A DNA stretch of 29,134 nt, from the NCBI GenBank assembly GCA_964601245.1, contig CAZRMR010000003.1:1-29134 (forward strand). Direction: 5' to 3'. Numbering within the stretch: the first letter of the stretch is position 1; each line of letters begins with the position of its first letter. Position numbers and translations under genes: made by a program. The DNA is from an uncultured Candidatus Saccharibacteria bacterium (GTDB lineage Bacteria > Patescibacteriota > Minisyncoccia > Phycocordibacterales > WO2-35-19). The notes under the pieces are model-generated. The model saw nothing but the letters and a program-made list of their open reading frames with translations, was not told where the DNA came from and did not search any database. Shown here piece by piece: positions 8,967-14,628 of the stretch.

Positions 8967-11051
8967 CTATATGTCAATATTAGCTAATTTAGCGTTTGAT
9001 TGGATGAAAGATTTGCGAGCTGGAACATCGGTACCCATAAGAATATCGAAAATACGATCTGCCTCTTGGGCATCCTCTATTTCTACTCTCTTCAAAATCC
9101 TTCTTTTAGGATCCATGGTTGTCTCCCAAAGTTCTTCTGCGTTCATTTCTCCAAGACCTTTGTATCTTTGGACATGAATTTTAGGACCTTTTGATTTATT
9201 TTTGGATTCTATTTCTTCTTCCTCTAAATTTTCTTCTGCCGATTCCGTTTCCTGTTCTTGATTTTCAACATTTTCTTCTACATTATTTTTACCCAATATT
9301 TTATTTTTATCTTCATCGCTATAGGCATAAAATATTTCTTTACCTTTTTTAATTTTATAAAGAGGTGGTTGAGCAATATAAATATAGCCATCGTCTATAA
9401 GCGGTCTAAAATATCTATACAACAAAGTTAAAATAAGAGTACGAATATGAGCCCCGTCAACATCGGCATCTGTAGCAATTATTACTTTATGATATCTAAG
9501 TTTTTCAATATCAAATGTGTCACCTATAGCCGTTCCCAAAGCTACTACCAAATTTTTTATTTGTTCTGAAGCGAGCATCCTGTCTAATCTGGCTCTTTCT
9601 ATGTTTAAAATTTTACCTCTTAAAGGAAGTATAGCTTGAGTTCTTCTATCTCTTCCTGTTTTAGCTGTACCTCCAGCAGAATCTCCCTCGACAATAAATA
9701 ATTCTGATTCTTCAGCTGACCTACTTTGACAATCAGCCAACTTTCCCGGAAGAGTCATCCCTTCTAAAACACCTTTTCTCAAAATAGAATCTTTGGCCGC
9801 TTTTGCCGCTTTTCTTGCTCTAAGAGCTAAGACAACCTTGCTTACTATTGCTTTAGCGTCATCTGGATTTTCTTCCAAAAAGGCACTAAAAGAATCTCCA
9901 AAAGCGTTTTCAACCATTCCTCTTGCTTCCACGCTTCCAAGTTTTGCTTTTGTTTGACCTTCAAATTGTATTTCTCGAAGTTTTACAGATATGACAGCCG
10001 TTAAACCTTCCAATACATCCTCCCCATTGAAAGCTTCTTCCCCATCTTTTATTAGATTGTTCTTTTTGGCATAAGAATTTAGAGTCCTTGTTAGTGCTGA
10101 TTTGAATCCAGTTATGTGAGTTCCCCCTTCGCTGTTATAAATATTGTTTGCAAAAGGCATTATTCTTGAAGAAATATCATCTATATATTGAAGAGCTATT
10201 TCTACCCCCTCACCCGCTGTTGGTGTATTTATTTTTTCTGTATAAAAAATATTTTTGTGTATCGGCTTTTGGTTGTGGTTATAAAATCTTATTAGTGACA
10301 TAAGACCGCCTTCAAAATAAAAACTCATTGACGGAGCTTCCAAAGATAAATCTGAAAGATAAAACAACCCATCTTTTTTATTTAAGATTGAATCTATTTT
10401 TTCATTTTTTCTAAGATCTATGACAGATATTTTTAGACCCTTAACTAGATAGGCCTGTTGTCTTAGGTGAGAAACGATTCTTCCGAAATCAAAAGAGACT
10501 TCTTTGAAAATCTCTATATCTGGCTCAAAGGTTATTATTGTGCCGTTCATTTTCGAGGAGCCTATTTTTTTAACCGAAGCTTTTTTCTTCCCTTTTGAAT
10601 ATTCTTGCATGTATATACCACCATCTCTATGAACTTCGGCCTTCATATAAATAGAAAGGGCATTTACCACAGAAGCACCTACTCCGTGTAAACCACCAGA
10701 GACCTTATAACCATCTCCTCCAAATTTACCTCCAGCGTGTAATGTGGTCAAAATTGTTTCCAAAGCAGAAACTTTTGTTTGTTTGTGCACATCGACTGGT
10801 ATACCTCTTCCGTTATCAACAACCCTTATTTTATTTCCTGGCAAAAGACAAACTTCAATATGGTCAGCAAAACCACCCATCGCTTCGTCTCTTGAGTTAT
10901 CAAAAATTTCCCATATTAAATGGTGCAAGCCATCCGGTCCAGTTGTCCCGATATACATTCCCGGTCTTTTTCTGACCGGCTCTAAACCTTCAAGCACCGT
11001 GATAGATTCAGCACTATAACTGCTTTTGTTTTTATCTTTTTTATCAGCCAT
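8967..11051 (-). CDS. gyrB: DNA gyrase subunit B
   Basis: LEGLEPVRKRPGMYIG, EIFDNSRDE, GGLHGVG, EGDSAGG, PLRGKILN, DADVDG, QRYKGLGEM. Confidence 0.97.
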   Translation of the reverse strand: MADKKDKNKSSYSAESITVLEGLEPVRKRPGMYIGTTGPDGLHHLIWEIFDNSRDEAMGGFADHIEVCLLPGNKIRVVDNGRGIPVDVHKQTKVSALETILTTLHAGGKFGGDGYKVSGGLHGVGASVVNALSIYMKAEVHRDGGIYMQEYSKGKKKASVKKIGSSKMNGTIITFEPDIEIFKEVSFDFGRIVSHLRQQAYLVKGLKISVIDLRKNEKIDSILNKKDGLFYLSDLSLEAPSMSFYFEGGLMSLIRFYNHNQKPIHKNIFYTEKINTPTAGEGVEIALQYIDDISSRIMPFANNIYNSEGGTHITGFKSALTRTLNSYAKKNNLIKDGEEAFNGEDVLEGLTAVISVKLREIQFEGQTKAKLGSVEARGMVENAFGDSFSAFLEENPDDAKAIVSKVVLALRARKAAKAAKDSILRKGVLEGMTLPGKLADCQSRSAEESELFIVEGDSAGGTAKTGRDRRTQAILPLRGKILNIERARLDRMLASEQIKNLVVALGTAIGDTFDIEKLRYHKVIIATDADVDGAHIRTLILTLLYRYFRPLIDDGYIYIAQPPLYKIKKGKEIFYAYSDEDKNKILGKNNVEENVENQEQETESAEENLEEEEIESKNKSKGPKIHVQRYKGLGEMNAEELWETTMDPKRRILKRVEIEDAQEADRIFDILMGTDVPARKSFIQSNAKLANIDI

Positions 11052-11070: not shown

Positions 11071-11760
11071 TTATGAGTTATCTCGCCAGTTTTCAAAAAG
11101 GTTTTTTATTAACAATTCTCTTGAATTTATCTCGTCTTTATTTTCTGGTATTGCCACAACGAAACGAATTTCTTCAATATTAGCCACCCTTCTAAATCCA
11201 ACTATCTTGGATGATTTTTTAAACTCATCTATTTTTTCTACAACAACCCCGTTTTTTATTTTTGTGGCGTGTAAGACATTTTCATCACCAAGATACATTC
11301 CAACATGATCGACTCCTTCCGGAACTTTTGTGCCACTTTTATATTCAATGCTCTCAGTATAAATTTTTCCTTTACCAGTATTCGAAAATACTAAATCTCC
11401 AAATCTTAATTCGTCTCTATCAATTTTTTTACCAAAAACATATTTATCTACAGATATGGAGGGCATCCATACTCCCGCCATTGTGTATAGATAACTTATT
11501 AAAGAAGAGCAACTAAAAGCGTCTGGAGCATCTTCCCTCATACTAGATGGGTTTTTGTATATTGCCCCCATGCATTTAGGTATAGTTTCTTTTATTGCTT
11601 CACCTACAATAACTTTTTTAAATTCTAAACCTTCTTTTGTAAGTAATTTCTCTATGTCTTTTTCATCTAAGTTTTTACCAGTTTCTTTTTGAAATTCTCT
11701 TACTGAGAATCCTATTAAATATTGCCAAGTTTTTTTGTTTTTTCTTATATTCAGATTCAT
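11071..11760 (-). CDS. NlpC/P60 (C40 peptidase) domain protein flanked by halves of a PheT B5-like domain
   Basis: AFSCSSLISY (Cys84), GDLVF, DHVGMYLG (His152), VLHA (His164); flanking segments resemble B5; no signal peptide. Confidence 0.85.
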   Translation of the reverse strand: MNLNIRKNKKTWQYLIGFSVREFQKETGKNLDEKDIEKLLTKEGLEFKKVIVGEAIKETIPKCMGAIYKNPSSMREDAPDAFSCSSLISYLYTMAGVWMPSISVDKYVFGKKIDRDELRFGDLVFSNTGKGKIYTESIEYKSGTKVPEGVDHVGMYLGDENVLHATKIKNGVVVEKIDEFKKSSKIVGFRRVANIEEIRFVVAIPENKDEINSRELLIKNLFENWRDNS

Positions 11761-11799
11761 CGTTGAATTTTATCATATTTTTATTTAAACTATATAAAC

Positions 11800-12969
11800 A
11801 TGAAAAAAACGAAATACAAAATAGAAAACAAAGAAGAAAAGGGCCTTTTAGAAACAATAGAGAAAAGAGAAGATGTGGAAGCCTTGAGAATAAAAAGATA
11901 TATTTCTATGCCTGATTTATCAAGGAAAGAGTTGAGCCCTCTAAAAGAAGTTGTAGAAAGAGCTAAAAATACTGAGACTTTAAAAGATTTTGATGAAATA
12001 GAAATATCAGAGATTGTCCCCGCTGATATAAGTTTTGATCTATTCAATTTTCCGGAAAATCATCCAGCAAGAAGTAAATCAGATACATATTATATAGATG
12101 AAAAAAATATTTTGAGGACCCATTGTACTGTGATGTGGTATTACTATCTGCATTTACCTGAAATAAGAGAAAAATTAGAAAAAGGAGAAGAATTGGGAGT
12201 CATATCTTTTGGAAAAGTTTATAGAAAAGATGAAATAGATCGAAGGCATATGAATGTTTTTCATCAGATTGATGGACTTTACCTTTGTCAAAAATCAGAA
12301 CACATAATTAATCAAGACGATTTAAAAAAAGTTCTGGCAGAAGTGGCACAGGGGATTTTTGGTAAAGATGTTAAATACAGATTTAATCCGGACACTTTCC
12401 CCTATACTCATTCTAGTCTAGAAATGGAAGTTGATAAAAATAGTATTAGTAAAAATGGAGAGAAAGAAGAATGGGTTGAAATACTTGGAGCTGGTATTGT
12501 TGAACCAAAAGTTTTAGAGAAATTTGGGATAGATAGTGAAAAGTATAATGGATGGGCTTTTGGTTTTGGTCTTGAGAGATTAGCTATAATTAGTATGGAA
12601 TTACCAGACATAAGACTTTTGTGGTCAGAAGACGAAAGAGTTTTAAAACAATTAAAACTTGGCCAAAAGTTTGTTGAGGTTAGCAAATATCCGGCAATAG
12701 TGAGAGATATATCTTTTGTGGTTGATAATGATTTTGTACCAAACAATTATTTTGATCTTGTTCGCCAGACTTTGGGTGATGTGGCAGAAGAAGTTGAACT
12801 TTTAGATAAATACGAAAATGAAGAAAAGTTTGGTAAAAATAAAATAAGTTATGCCTATCGCATAACCTACAGATCGCTTGATAGGACTCTTACAAATGCT
12901 GAAATAGAGGTTTTGCATAAAAAACTTGAAGATATAACAAAAAACACATTTAACGCGACAATTCGTTAA
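11800..12969 (+). CDS. pheS: Phenylalanine--tRNA ligase, single-chain mitochondrial-like type (catalytic domain plus FDX-ACB)
   Basis: HPARSKSDTYY, LRTH, GKVYRKDEID..H..VFHQ, GWAFGFGLERLA; C-terminal SKYPAIVRDISFVV...YRSLDRTLTNAEI (FDX-ACB). Confidence 0.93.
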   Translation: MKKTKYKIENKEEKGLLETIEKREDVEALRIKRYISMPDLSRKELSPLKEVVERAKNTETLKDFDEIEISEIVPADISFDLFNFPENHPARSKSDTYYIDEKNILRTHCTVMWYYYLHLPEIREKLEKGEELGVISFGKVYRKDEIDRRHMNVFHQIDGLYLCQKSEHIINQDDLKKVLAEVAQGIFGKDVKYRFNPDTFPYTHSSLEMEVDKNSISKNGEKEEWVEILGAGIVEPKVLEKFGIDSEKYNGWAFGFGLERLAIISMELPDIRLLWSEDERVLKQLKLGQKFVEVSKYPAIVRDISFVVDNDFVPNNYFDLVRQTLGDVAEEVELLDKYENEEKFGKNKISYAYRITYRSLDRTLTNAEIEVLHKKLEDITKNTFNATIR

Positions 12970-12991: not shown

Positions 12992-14224
12992 ATGGAAATT
13001 TCAGAAGTAATAACAAATATATTGCTTTTCGTGGCTCTCTATTTTGAGGTTTTTTTGCTTATAACTTATTTTGAAATAATAGAAAAAGAAAAAAAATCGA
13101 TATCCATAAAAACTGTATCAAAATACCCATCGGTCTCTATTATTGTGCCAGTTTGGAACGAAGAAAAAACGGTTTTAAAAACAATCTTTTCCCTACTCAA
13201 ATTAAATTATCCTAAAGACAAACTTTCAATATTCATAGTGGATGACGGAAGTGTGGACAATACATGGAAAGTTGTCCAAAGATTTTCAAAAAATAAACAG
13301 ATAAAGCTTTTAAGAAAAGAAAATGGTGGCAAACATACTGCTCTAAATTATGCTTTAGAATTCATAGATAGTGACCTTGTCGGTTGTTTAGATGCAGACT
13401 CTTTTGTTCATCCAGAAGCTTTGAAAAGGATGGTAATTCTCTTTGAGGACAAAGAAATAATGGCCGTTACTCCATCTATTAAACTTTTTGAACCAAAAGG
13501 TATTTTACAGATGATACAAAAAGCAGAATATATCTTTGGAATTTTCTTAAGAAAAGTCTTTTCCTATCTCAACGCTATATATATAACTCCCGGACCTTTT
13601 TCAATTTTTAGAAGAGATGTTTTTAGAAAAATAGGAAATTACAGACATGCTCACGGTACAGAAGATATGGAAGTGGCCATGAGAATGCAGAAAAACGGTA
13701 TGAAAATAGGCAATGTTCACAACGCTTTCATATACACAGTAGGTCCAAATACCCTTAAGAATCTCTACAAACAGAGATTGAGATGGGTCTATGGTTTTAT
13801 AAAAAACGTAATCGATTATAGAGATATGTTTTTCAAACCCCAGTATGGACATTTAAGTATGGCTATTTTGCCTGCAGCAAGTTTTTCGGTCTTGTCTACT
13901 TTATATTTCTTTGGGGCTTCTATTTTTAATTTTATAAACTCAATTATAGAAAAGATAACTCAAATATCTGTAGTTGGATTTTCTTTTGGTGATTTTAATT
14001 TTGATTTATTTTATATAAATACAGATATGATAGTTTTTGTATCAATGATTGCTATTCTTGGTACTTTCTTTATCATCGTCACATCAAGAGGTTTGGCAGA
14101 AGAAAAAGGAAAATTCGGTTTGGATAGCGTTTTGTTTTTGGCTCTCTATACTACTATAGCCCCTCTTTGGATGACCAAAGCTGTATATAACGTCGTTTTT
14201 GCTAAGAAGACTAAGTGGAGATAG
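12992..14224 (+). CDS. Processive family 2 glycosyltransferase (membrane polysaccharide synthase-like)
   Basis: DDGS, GGKH, DADS, TED and QRLRW (QxxRW) motifs; N- and C-terminal TM helices. Confidence 0.92.
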   Translation: MEISEVITNILLFVALYFEVFLLITYFEIIEKEKKSISIKTVSKYPSVSIIVPVWNEEKTVLKTIFSLLKLNYPKDKLSIFIVDDGSVDNTWKVVQRFSKNKQIKLLRKENGGKHTALNYALEFIDSDLVGCLDADSFVHPEALKRMVILFEDKEIMAVTPSIKLFEPKGILQMIQKAEYIFGIFLRKVFSYLNAIYITPGPFSIFRRDVFRKIGNYRHAHGTEDMEVAMRMQKNGMKIGNVHNAFIYTVGPNTLKNLYKQRLRWVYGFIKNVIDYRDMFFKPQYGHLSMAILPAASFSVLSTLYFFGASIFNFINSIIEKITQISVVGFSFGDFNFDLFYINTDMIVFVSMIAILGTFFIIVTSRGLAEEKGKFGLDSVLFLALYTTIAPLWMTKAVYNVVFAKKTKWR

Positions 14225-14278: not shown

Positions 14279-14628
14279 ATGGGGCTACATAGTCATAAAG
14301 ATTTGATTGTTTGGTAGAAAAGTATGGTTTGGGTAGTAAATATCTACGAACTTACAAAAAGTTTTCCTCAATCAGAAATATATAGACTTTCATCTCAAAT
14401 GAGAAGGTGTGCTGTTTCTATTCATTCAAATATTGCCGAGGGAAGTAAAAGAAAAATCAAAATGATTTTTTGTAATTCATAGCTATTGCTTTTGGTTCTG
14501 GTGCTGAGTTAGAAACTCAAATAGAAATTGATAGACAATTGAGATATATTAAACTAGAGTTATTGAATTCATTAGAAAATTTGCTCCAAGAAGTTATGAA
14601 AATGTTGTCTGTAATGAGTAGAAAATAA
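14279..14628 (+). pseudogene. Four-helix-bundle protein (23S rRNA IVP / S23 family) pseudogene; not in the ORF track
   Basis: MGLHSHKDLIVW*KSM...[34 protein letters not shown]...IAFGSGAELETQIEI; TAG at 14315-14317, one base missing from the A-run at 14452-14456, TAA at 14473-14475; ~116 aa if repaired. Confidence 0.92.

Follow-up and report, generated by a model that had tools for sequence, protein, structure and literature searches.

A free-standing NlpC/P60 hydrolase module beside a single-chain phenylalanyl-tRNA synthetase gene in a Candidatus Saccharibacteria genome: probable remains of an insert-bearing pheT

Few proteins are as strongly conserved as the aminoacyl-tRNA synthetases and, to our knowledge, these enzymes seldom acquire a foreign catalytic domain in bacteria. 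Free-standing homologues of synthetase domains exist in AlaX, YbaK/ProX and ThrRS-ed, which are editing domains acting on mischarged tRNA. The P60-type members of the NlpC/P60 family (MEROPS C40, PF00877), such as the C. difficile autolysin Acd24020 (7cfl), E. coli MepS/Spr and B. subtilis CwlO, are DL-endopeptidases with a papain-like fold and a Cys-His-His triad. In B. subtilis YkfC, a P60-type cysteine amidase that works inside the cell, an accessory domain packs against the catalytic domain, which depends on it. The present study concerns a gene in a stretch of 29,134 nucleotides (contig CAZRMR010000003.1, assembly GCA_964601245.1; hereafter, the window) from an uncultured Candidatus Saccharibacteria bacterium. 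Its product, P0001, has an NlpC/P60 domain nested within the B5 domain of the beta subunit (PheT) of phenylalanyl-tRNA synthetase (PheRS). Quite probably, P0001 represents the remains of a Paceibacteria-type pheT with a nested NlpC/P60 domain, that is, an autonomous cytoplasmic cysteine hydrolase freed from PheT. This reading builds on the observed homology, architecture and synteny of P0001, on the absence of pheT, and on the pattern of conserved and relaxed residues. P0001 would be a variant of two known kinds, the NlpC/P60 hydrolases and the synthetase-derived stand-alone domains. It shares with AlaX, YbaK/ProX and ThrRS-ed the concept of a synthetase piece encoded as a separate gene; however, the retained piece is a structural domain with a foreign peptidase, not an editing domain. 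Public annotations of the homologues read 'NlpC/P60 family protein', 'hypothetical' or plain 'phenylalanyl-tRNA synthetase beta subunit'. In an incomplete literature library, nothing was found describing an NlpC/P60 insert in PheT or a stand-alone descendant of one; a discussion of candidate phyla radiation (CPR) PheRS beta subunits without B2 mentions no insert (Mukai et al. 2017, PMC5370408).

The gene and its parts lie on the window as follows.

11071..11760, minus strand: whole gene of the stand-alone B5[NlpC/P60] module (P0001, 229 amino acids (aa)), an open reading frame (ORF) intact from ATG to TAA
11602..11730, minus strand: first half of B5 (residues 11-53), aligning with the B5 first half of insert-less and insert-bearing PheT
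11179..11601, minus strand: nested NlpC/P60 papain-like domain (residues 54-194), by PF00877 and by Foldseek and phmmer matches to 7cfl
11509..11511, minus strand: codon of catalytic Cys84 in the motif SCS, translating to C
11305..11307, minus strand: codon of catalytic His152, translating to H
11269..11271, minus strand: codon of the third triad residue, His164, translating to H
11074..11178, minus strand: second half of B5 (residues 195-229), a strand RFVVAIP followed by a helix in which PheT-invariant residues are replaced

PF00877 matches residues 79-190 of P0001 (E 7.5e-15; 55.2 bits against a cut-off of 23), and the closest solved relative by sequence is the catalytic domain of Acd24020 (7cfl, phmmer E 8.2e-10). 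In alignments with 7cfl and other chains, Cys84 and His152 fall on the catalytic pair, and His164 is the third residue. The Pfam match and the triad alignment thus bear out the preliminary description of this DNA, which had recognized a complete NlpC/P60 domain with Cys84/His152/His164 and an SCS motif. An AlphaFold2 (AF2) model from a 45-sequence alignment was confident, with a mean predicted local distance difference test (pLDDT) score of 93.6 and a predicted template modelling (pTM) score of 0.89. The order of its elements is strand, helix, helix, strand, then the papain-like domain, then strand and helix; the two strands and two helices of the first B5 half fall at E14-18, H20-27, H33-42 and E46-51. 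When the whole model was compared with the PDB by Foldseek, all 50 matches listed were NlpC/P60 proteins, the best again being 7cfl (E 3.8e-9; template modelling (TM) score 0.87 by target). A search with the whole model misses the small split B5, so this domain was examined by profile-profile comparison instead.

Besides fold and triad, the P60-type DL-endopeptidases and P0001 have GDL, HVG and RR motifs in common. P0001 differs from them in lacking a signal peptide, lipobox or wall-binding domain, in the nesting of its catalytic domain within a tRNA-synthetase domain, in an extra hairpin of ~20 residues (131-150) between GDL and HVG, and in having SCS in place of the usual DCS. Neither a signal peptide nor a membrane helix was seen in its hydropathy profile (maximum 19-residue Kyte-Doolittle mean 1.12; average of the first 30 residues -1.11), in line with the earlier suggestion of a probably cytoplasmic protein. 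The cytoplasmic murein-peptide enzymes of the family (YkfC, Bacillus sphaericus dipeptidyl-peptidase VI; 3h41, 3npf, 3pvq) are among the fold and sequence matches of P0001. These entries, however, match it less well than the secreted autolysins do (E 5.5e-4 to 0.3), their accessory domain is SH3b and not B5, and they have no synthetase link. By Pfam, P0001 is without B3/4, B6/7 or FDX-ACB, which PheT (TIGR00472) unites in one chain; it is a fragment-sized descendant of PheT, not a PheT.

In the flanks of the peptidase, single-sequence searches gave weak signals. The N-terminal flank alone gave matches below threshold, at residues 17-61, to Pfam B5 (E 0.11) and PhetRS_B1 (E 0.014), and P0001 scored 13.1 bits against PF03484 (B5), with a cut-off of 28.6, over the first half only. 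Individually, 21/45 relatives match PF03484 at E <= 0.1 (best 6.3e-9). For hhalign, the query was an alignment of 62 stand-alone proteins with the peptidase columns removed and the flanks joined, and the target was the B5 region of eight PheT without the insert (621-689 aa), taken from members of the window's order. The joined flanks matched this B5 with a probability of 97.7% and an E value of 2.5e-12 over 58 columns spanning both halves, against 1.0%, 0.2% and 0.7% for the B1, B3/4 and B6/7 controls from the same PheT. By this profile comparison, the flanks of P0001 are homologous to B5 of PheT, as had been proposed for its two halves from the letters alone. Furthermore, in an alignment of the eight insert-less PheT, three insert-bearing PheT of the window's order and P0001, the latter is colinear with both B5 halves, the insert interrupts B5 in the hairpin that connects strand 2 (GFxYxK) to strand 3 (RFVVxVP), and the second half aligns with PheT RFVVxVPxERxDLRIxEDLIEEIGRIYGY.

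Compared with B5 of bacterial PheRS beta (PF03484), both halves of P0001 thus keep their homology and the same order of secondary structure, but they are split by a 141-residue insert, stand outside any PheT chain, and have lost the PheT-invariant R/D/D/E/E/R positions. The residues at these positions (P0001 numbering) are given below for PheT modules and for the 62 stand-alone forms.

Position 208: R in 120/120 PheT modules; R in 30 and K in 15 stand-alone forms; K in P0001
Position 210: D in 120/120 PheT modules; D in 35 and E in 15 stand-alone forms; E in P0001
Position 216: D in 115/120 PheT modules; N, K, S or D in stand-alone forms; L in P0001
Position 219: E in 113/120 PheT modules; mostly K, A or N in stand-alone forms; K in P0001
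Position 220: E in 113/120 PheT modules; E in 21/62 stand-alone forms; N in P0001
Position 223: R in 114/120 PheT modules; S, K, Q or a gap in stand-alone forms; E in P0001

P0001 lacks the conserved motif R-x-D ... D-L-I-E-E-x-x-R of the second B5 half, and the earlier remark that the acidic residues of this half are lost holds, since D210, D216, E219 and E220 read E, L, K and N. In the UniProt annotation of E. coli PheT, this segment presumably contains the acidic residues binding an Mg2+ shared with the alpha subunit.

In contrast to the relaxed synthetase-facing B5 residues, the peptidase residues of the stand-alone forms are constrained. Cys84 and His152 are each kept in 62/62 stand-alone and 118/120 PheT-embedded modules, and the third triad residue is His in 55/62 and Gln in 6/62 stand-alone forms (61/62 together) and His in 113/120 PheT modules. 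The combined count of 180/182 for the catalytic Cys refers to the closest ~180 modules only. Besides the catalytic residues, some 25 further positions show little or no variation in the stand-alone family. On the first B5 strand, Tyr14 (62/62 stand-alone, 98/120 PheT) and Gly17 (61/62 and 111/120) are conserved in insert-bearing modules and not in insert-less B5, which suggests that this strand packs against the insert.

The same module occurs in PheT itself. Among 1.84 billion representative proteins, a profile built from 45 close homologues matched 166 clusters at E <= 1e-30; most of the top 150 matches were proteins of 770-840 aa, matched at about residues 295-510. The homology of P0001 to this region (residues ~295-510 of full-length PheT) runs over its whole length (profile positions 2-209). 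At least 105 clusters (50% identity) of full-length PheT carry the NlpC/P60 module in the same B5 hairpin; fusions of just this kind had been predicted for CPR proteomes if P0001 derived from pheT. Of the classified module-bearing sequences, 105 are full-length PheT, 62 stand alone, 8 stand alone but are extended at the C-terminus, and 7 have the order B5[NlpC]-B6/7-B8. In ten of the top matches that were examined, Pfam placed B3_4, NLPC_P60, the second half of B5, tRNA_synthFbeta and FDX-ACB in six full-length and three truncated PheT. In these, NLPC_P60 is directly followed by B5 profile positions ~33-67, which in the full-length relatives match the segment corresponding to the second B5 half of P0001. 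The remaining one, P0074, consists of repeated NlpC/P60 domains and is unrelated. Matches to full-length PheT cover profile positions ~3-207 with 140-284 bits.

Thus, the insert-bearing PheT of Paceibacteria and other Patescibacteria and P0001 have the same module at the same insertion site and are colinear over profile positions ~3-207, and PheT of the P0075, P0076 and P0085 types have the SCS and WMPS signatures in common with the window's clade. In contrast to P0001, these PheT have B1, B3/4, B6/7 and B8 as well as a canonical B5 motif, and their partner is a PheS of 225-252 aa consisting of the core only, whereas P0001 lies beside a single-chain PheRS. Among 300 genomes sampled across the phylum, only 3 more matches within PheT came up at E <= 1e-20, so the module is concentrated in certain clades rather than present throughout. 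In distant classes, the PheT with the insert measure 929-955 aa. Five proteins of 478-533 aa (P0087, P0176, P0123, P0146 and P0156) have B5[NlpC/P60], B6/7 and FDX-ACB and neither B1 nor B3/4. They might be PheT that are split or lack editing, or else gene calls cut short, and they may be intermediates between full PheT and the stand-alone module.

The neighbourhood of the module gene comprises the following features.

11761..11799, no strand: divergent spacer of 39 bp between the module gene and pheS
11800..12969, plus strand: single-chain PheRS (P0002, 389 aa), by PF01409 (tRNA-synt_2d, E 1.1e-59) and PF03147 (FDX-ACB, E 4.7e-22)
8967..11051, minus strand: ORF of gyrB, the synteny anchor downstream of the module gene
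12992..14224, plus strand: family-2 glycosyltransferase (GT2) on the far side of pheS, so called from position, size and motifs by eye

P0002 is a PheS catalytic core fused to an FDX-ACB anticodon-binding domain. Among solved structures, human mitochondrial PheRS comes closest to it (E 4.8e-57, 197 bits), as against 134 bits or less for bacterial alpha subunits in the PDB, and it scores below the cut-offs of the NCBIfam models pheS_mito and 'PheS-related mystery ligase SrmL'. Identity is 35% between the core of P0002 and a core-only PheS, and 24% between the FDX-ACB of P0002 and the one in an insert-bearing PheT; neither figure tells local domain shuffling from an outside origin of the single-chain enzyme.

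The window's assembly (594 kb, 37 contigs) is estimated to be 100% complete. Profile searches of this genome found no TIGR00472 (pheT) match other than the FDX-ACB of P0002, which is the sole FDX-ACB, and no B3_4, so that the separate pheT for which a check had been advised is not found; P0001 is the sole PF00877 match. In the other genomes of the window's family (24/24), FDX-ACB lies in a frame of 378-447 aa, that is, a single-chain PheRS, and other pheT pieces were absent from the window's genome and from 23/24 of these sampled members. The stand-alone module is present in 6/24 of them (7 with the window's genome), and these 7/7 have single-chain PheRS and no pheT, which answers the earlier question of whether free B5-NlpC genes co-occur with the monomeric enzyme. 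In the 16 other families of the order that were sampled, nine had insert-less PheT, three had insert-bearing PheT (785, 817 and 841 aa), three had single-chain enzymes, and one was without a match to either.

Two family genomes deserve separate mention. The sole B3_4 match of the family lies in a 490-aa pheT fragment (G004:C27:426-1898, locus L028) on a contig of 1,899 bp; it extends from part of B3/4 through FDX-ACB, has no NlpC match, and runs off the contig, in a genome that also has single-chain PheRS. It represents either contamination or a genuine transitional state. In another genome with single-chain PheRS, a second, weaker FDX-ACB match (G007:C9:11380-11679, E 9.1e-8) lies in a 405-aa frame that may be a PheS-like paralogue.

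The start codons of P0001 and P0002 are 39 bp apart on divergent strands, as first described, and the module gene stands head-to-head with pheS in 7/7 family genomes that have it, with spacers of 37 bp in G015 and 40 bp in G024. By eye, either ATG is preceded, at a distance of 3-6 nt, by a -10-like hexamer (pheS, TATATA-aac-ATG; module gene, TAAAAT-tcaacg-ATG). The spacer (11761-11799) shows no visible Shine-Dalgarno sequence, and a consensus scan found no full sigma-70 site in it. This arrangement suggests leaderless transcripts from back-to-back promoters.

The surrounding gene order is recognizable in other loci. Downstream, gyrB follows the module or the pheT locus in L003, L011, L013, L015 and L016, and the GT2 gene is on the same side of pheS in L003, L013 and L015. 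Complete loci (L015, L016) read GT2, pheS, pheT[NlpC], Peptidase_C39_2, gyrB; reduced loci (L011, L013) read single-chain pheS, module, C39_2, gyrB; and L003 and the window have the reduced order without a recognized C39_2. In a second stand-alone clade (P0066 and P0061; L003 and L011), the module is co-directional after single-chain pheS with a 4-bp overlap. The pheS-pheT junctions of the complete loci measure 5 bp (L015) and 1 bp (L016), and the modules of L003 and L011 start in the place of pheT. The linkage of homologues to pheS, on which the earlier argument had been staked, is thus seen in both orientations. A subclade of P0047 and P0054 (the latter fused to Peptidase_C39_2) lies away from pheS (L010:3081-6200, L012:3994-5660), directly after a CAP-domain (PF00188) gene in both loci; in L012 the module is among cell-wall genes (Peptidase_S11, Glycos_transf_4, VanW).

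The simplest course of events would be the following. A single-chain PheRS gene would have come to occupy the pheS position and taken over tRNA-Phe charging, whereupon pheT would have become redundant and been trimmed in place, from both sides, down to the B5[NlpC/P60] module. The module would survive as an autonomous, cytoplasmic and catalytically competent Cys-His-His hydrolase. Its B5 halves would persist as a small sheet-and-helix scaffold because it is through them that the nested domain has its ends joined; probably they pack against this domain and have ceased to dock on PheRS. The preliminary description had regarded P0001 as a relic of pheT kept for its hydrolase. For the origin, the PheT fusions, the synteny and the lack of pheT support this view. 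The B5 halves themselves are probably more than a passive relic: they keep both ends of the nested domain together, and conservation of Tyr14 and Gly17 is limited to insert-bearing modules. Likewise, the link it drew between a tRNA synthetase and a hydrolase fold stands as a historical and positional one.

An unrooted tree of 64 modules is split with 99% support in the Shimodaira-Hasegawa-like approximate likelihood ratio test (SH-aLRT). One side holds the window's stand-alone clade and six PheT, with SCS and WMPS signatures; the other holds 30 PheT and the second stand-alone clade, which has DCS and AIPR signatures and groups with PheT of the DCS type. From these sequences, at least two separate liberations of the module from PheT are favoured, not proven.

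As for activity, P0001 has an intact fold and triad, lacks an export signal and derives from a cytoplasmic enzyme, and its peptidase residues are constrained; it is quite likely that the enzyme is active and independent of aminoacylation. Its predicted substrate, given here tentatively and by analogy, would be a murein-type or other gamma-glutamyl/isopeptide-linked peptide in the cytoplasm, processed in many relatives with a Peptidase_C39_2 partner. In favour of a murein-type substrate, the nearest solved relatives are gamma-D-Glu-diamino-acid endopeptidases. Peptidase_C39_2 is adjacent to the module locus in L011, L013, L015, L016, G005 and G025 and is fused to the module in 8 proteins. Like P0001, this partner has no signal peptide, as judged by eye from the P0226 sequence. 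Among its structural neighbours in the ESM Atlas, PF13529 often occurs together with lysozyme, Amidase_3, SLT or PG_binding domains; these names are automatic and serve as a lead only. A sequence search of the partner against the PDB gave no meaningful match.

Several observations weigh against parts of this reading. In the tree, placing all stand-alone forms in a single clade costs 41.7 log-likelihood units, but the approximately unbiased (AU) test does not reject one origin (p 0.077), and its groups were named after the tree was seen. The module is absent from 18/24 sampled family members; therefore, its function is dispensable. An obligate C39_2 partner is ruled out for the window's genome, which has no PF13529 match, so the two-enzyme scheme cannot apply here as such; elsewhere, C39_2 was recognized in 2/8 other module-bearing genomes and also occurs without the module. 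The assignment of a murein-peptide substrate follows family resemblance, and the substrates of the P60 family are diverse. Finally, the conserved 37-40 bp head-to-head layout with pheS could mark a continuing functional tie and not mere history.

Such a tie might take the form of P0001 still being a PheRS subunit, its B5 scaffold docking on the single-chain enzyme and either tethering or regulating the hydrolase or regulating the synthetase. The strictly conserved adjacency with its common 37-40 bp spacer, and the translational coupling through the 4-bp overlap in L003 and L011, would fit this possibility. We nevertheless regard it as decidedly unlikely: the stand-alone forms have exchanged the PheT-invariant B5 residues, presumably including the acidic ligands of the Mg2+ shared with the alpha subunit; a subclade of them has lost its linkage to pheS; and decay of pheT in place explains the adjacency equally well. 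A complex prediction of P0001 with P0002 scored 0.00, which gives no verdict and was counted neither way. The module could alternatively act on aminoacyl-tRNA, as a deacylase or aminoacyl transferase serving as a trans-acting quality-control or transfer factor beside the single-chain PheRS. LRAT, a member of the NlpC/P60 superfamily, is an acyltransferase that works via a Cys acyl-enzyme intermediate, and weak LRAT Pfam matches occur in 14/45 members; besides, the domain arose within a tRNA synthetase subunit, adjoins pheS in 7/7 family genomes, and accompanies a genome in which no B3_4 editing domain was found. However, since B3/4 is still present in full-length insert-bearing PheT, the insert did not originate as a substitute for editing, and 18/24 family genomes with the single-chain enzyme do without the module. 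Moreover, one subclade lies away from pheS beside a CAP-domain gene, the closest relatives by sequence and fold are peptidoglycan peptidases, and the recurrent partner is another peptidase-type domain. This activity on aminoacyl-tRNA is, in our estimate, decidedly unlikely. We place no higher the related idea that the hydrolase evolved inside PheRS for a synthetase-linked substrate (aminoacyl- or N-acyl-aminoacyl-tRNA, or aminoacyl-adenylate) and persists in editing-less single-chain lineages as a trans-acting papain-fold deacylase or aminoacyl transferase.

A functionless remnant, a pseudogene on its way out, would be in keeping with the degenerate B5 motif and with a module that is dispensable in most of the window's family. 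Against such decay, 62 stand-alone clusters that have diverged to 37-65% identity retain an intact frame, the catalytic residues and the further near-invariant positions are maintained, the AF2 model is confident, and new fusions to C39_2 have formed; we consider it very improbable. Even less credit is due to the reverse direction, in which PheT would have captured a B5-like/NlpC protein that already existed in free form. The unrooted tree alone gives no direction, and the AU test leaves room for one stand-alone clade. But B5 is universal in PheT, and its two halves flank the insert exactly at the B5 hairpin; PheT modules keep the canonical B5 motif that the stand-alone forms have lost; the stand-alone forms occur only where pheT is missing, in the slot of pheT in the locus; and the insert is found in the 929-955 aa PheT of distant classes. 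Descent from PheT, followed by release of the module, therefore remains the reading that we prefer.

A papain-fold cysteine hydrolase resides inside PheRS beta in well over a hundred Patescibacteria lineages, and on this reading the window would present a natural 'deletion experiment', in which a redundant beta subunit was discarded except for its hydrolase module. Since only the module was kept after the loss of pheT, this would be strong evidence for a cytoplasmic job of the hydrolase's own, retained in organisms with genomes of about 600 kb and few spare genes. The locus also documents, in free bacteria, the replacement of an (alpha-beta)2 PheRS by a single chain of the mitochondrial type. 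P0001 is small (229 aa), predicted to be soluble and confidently modelled, and its activity is testable without reconstituting PheRS.

Two further observations concern individual sequences. A metagenomic contig of 2244 bp (JGI 3300038862; L002:207-2207) carries an insert-bearing pheT after the end of a canonical pheS. Its frame has three in-frame TGA codons (216-218, 1161-1163 and 1269-1271) and is ended by TAA at 2205-2207 inside the B6 region. The first TGA is at a conserved Trp of PheT N-termini (MKYLHS[TGA]LAEYI), which points to a TGA-recoded lineage, with Trp a more likely reading than Gly. In the window itself, an apparently truncated ORF of 52 aa on the plus strand (14324-14482) is, by the resemblance of its sequence, a putative relative of the four-helix-bundle '23S rRNA intervening sequence protein' family.

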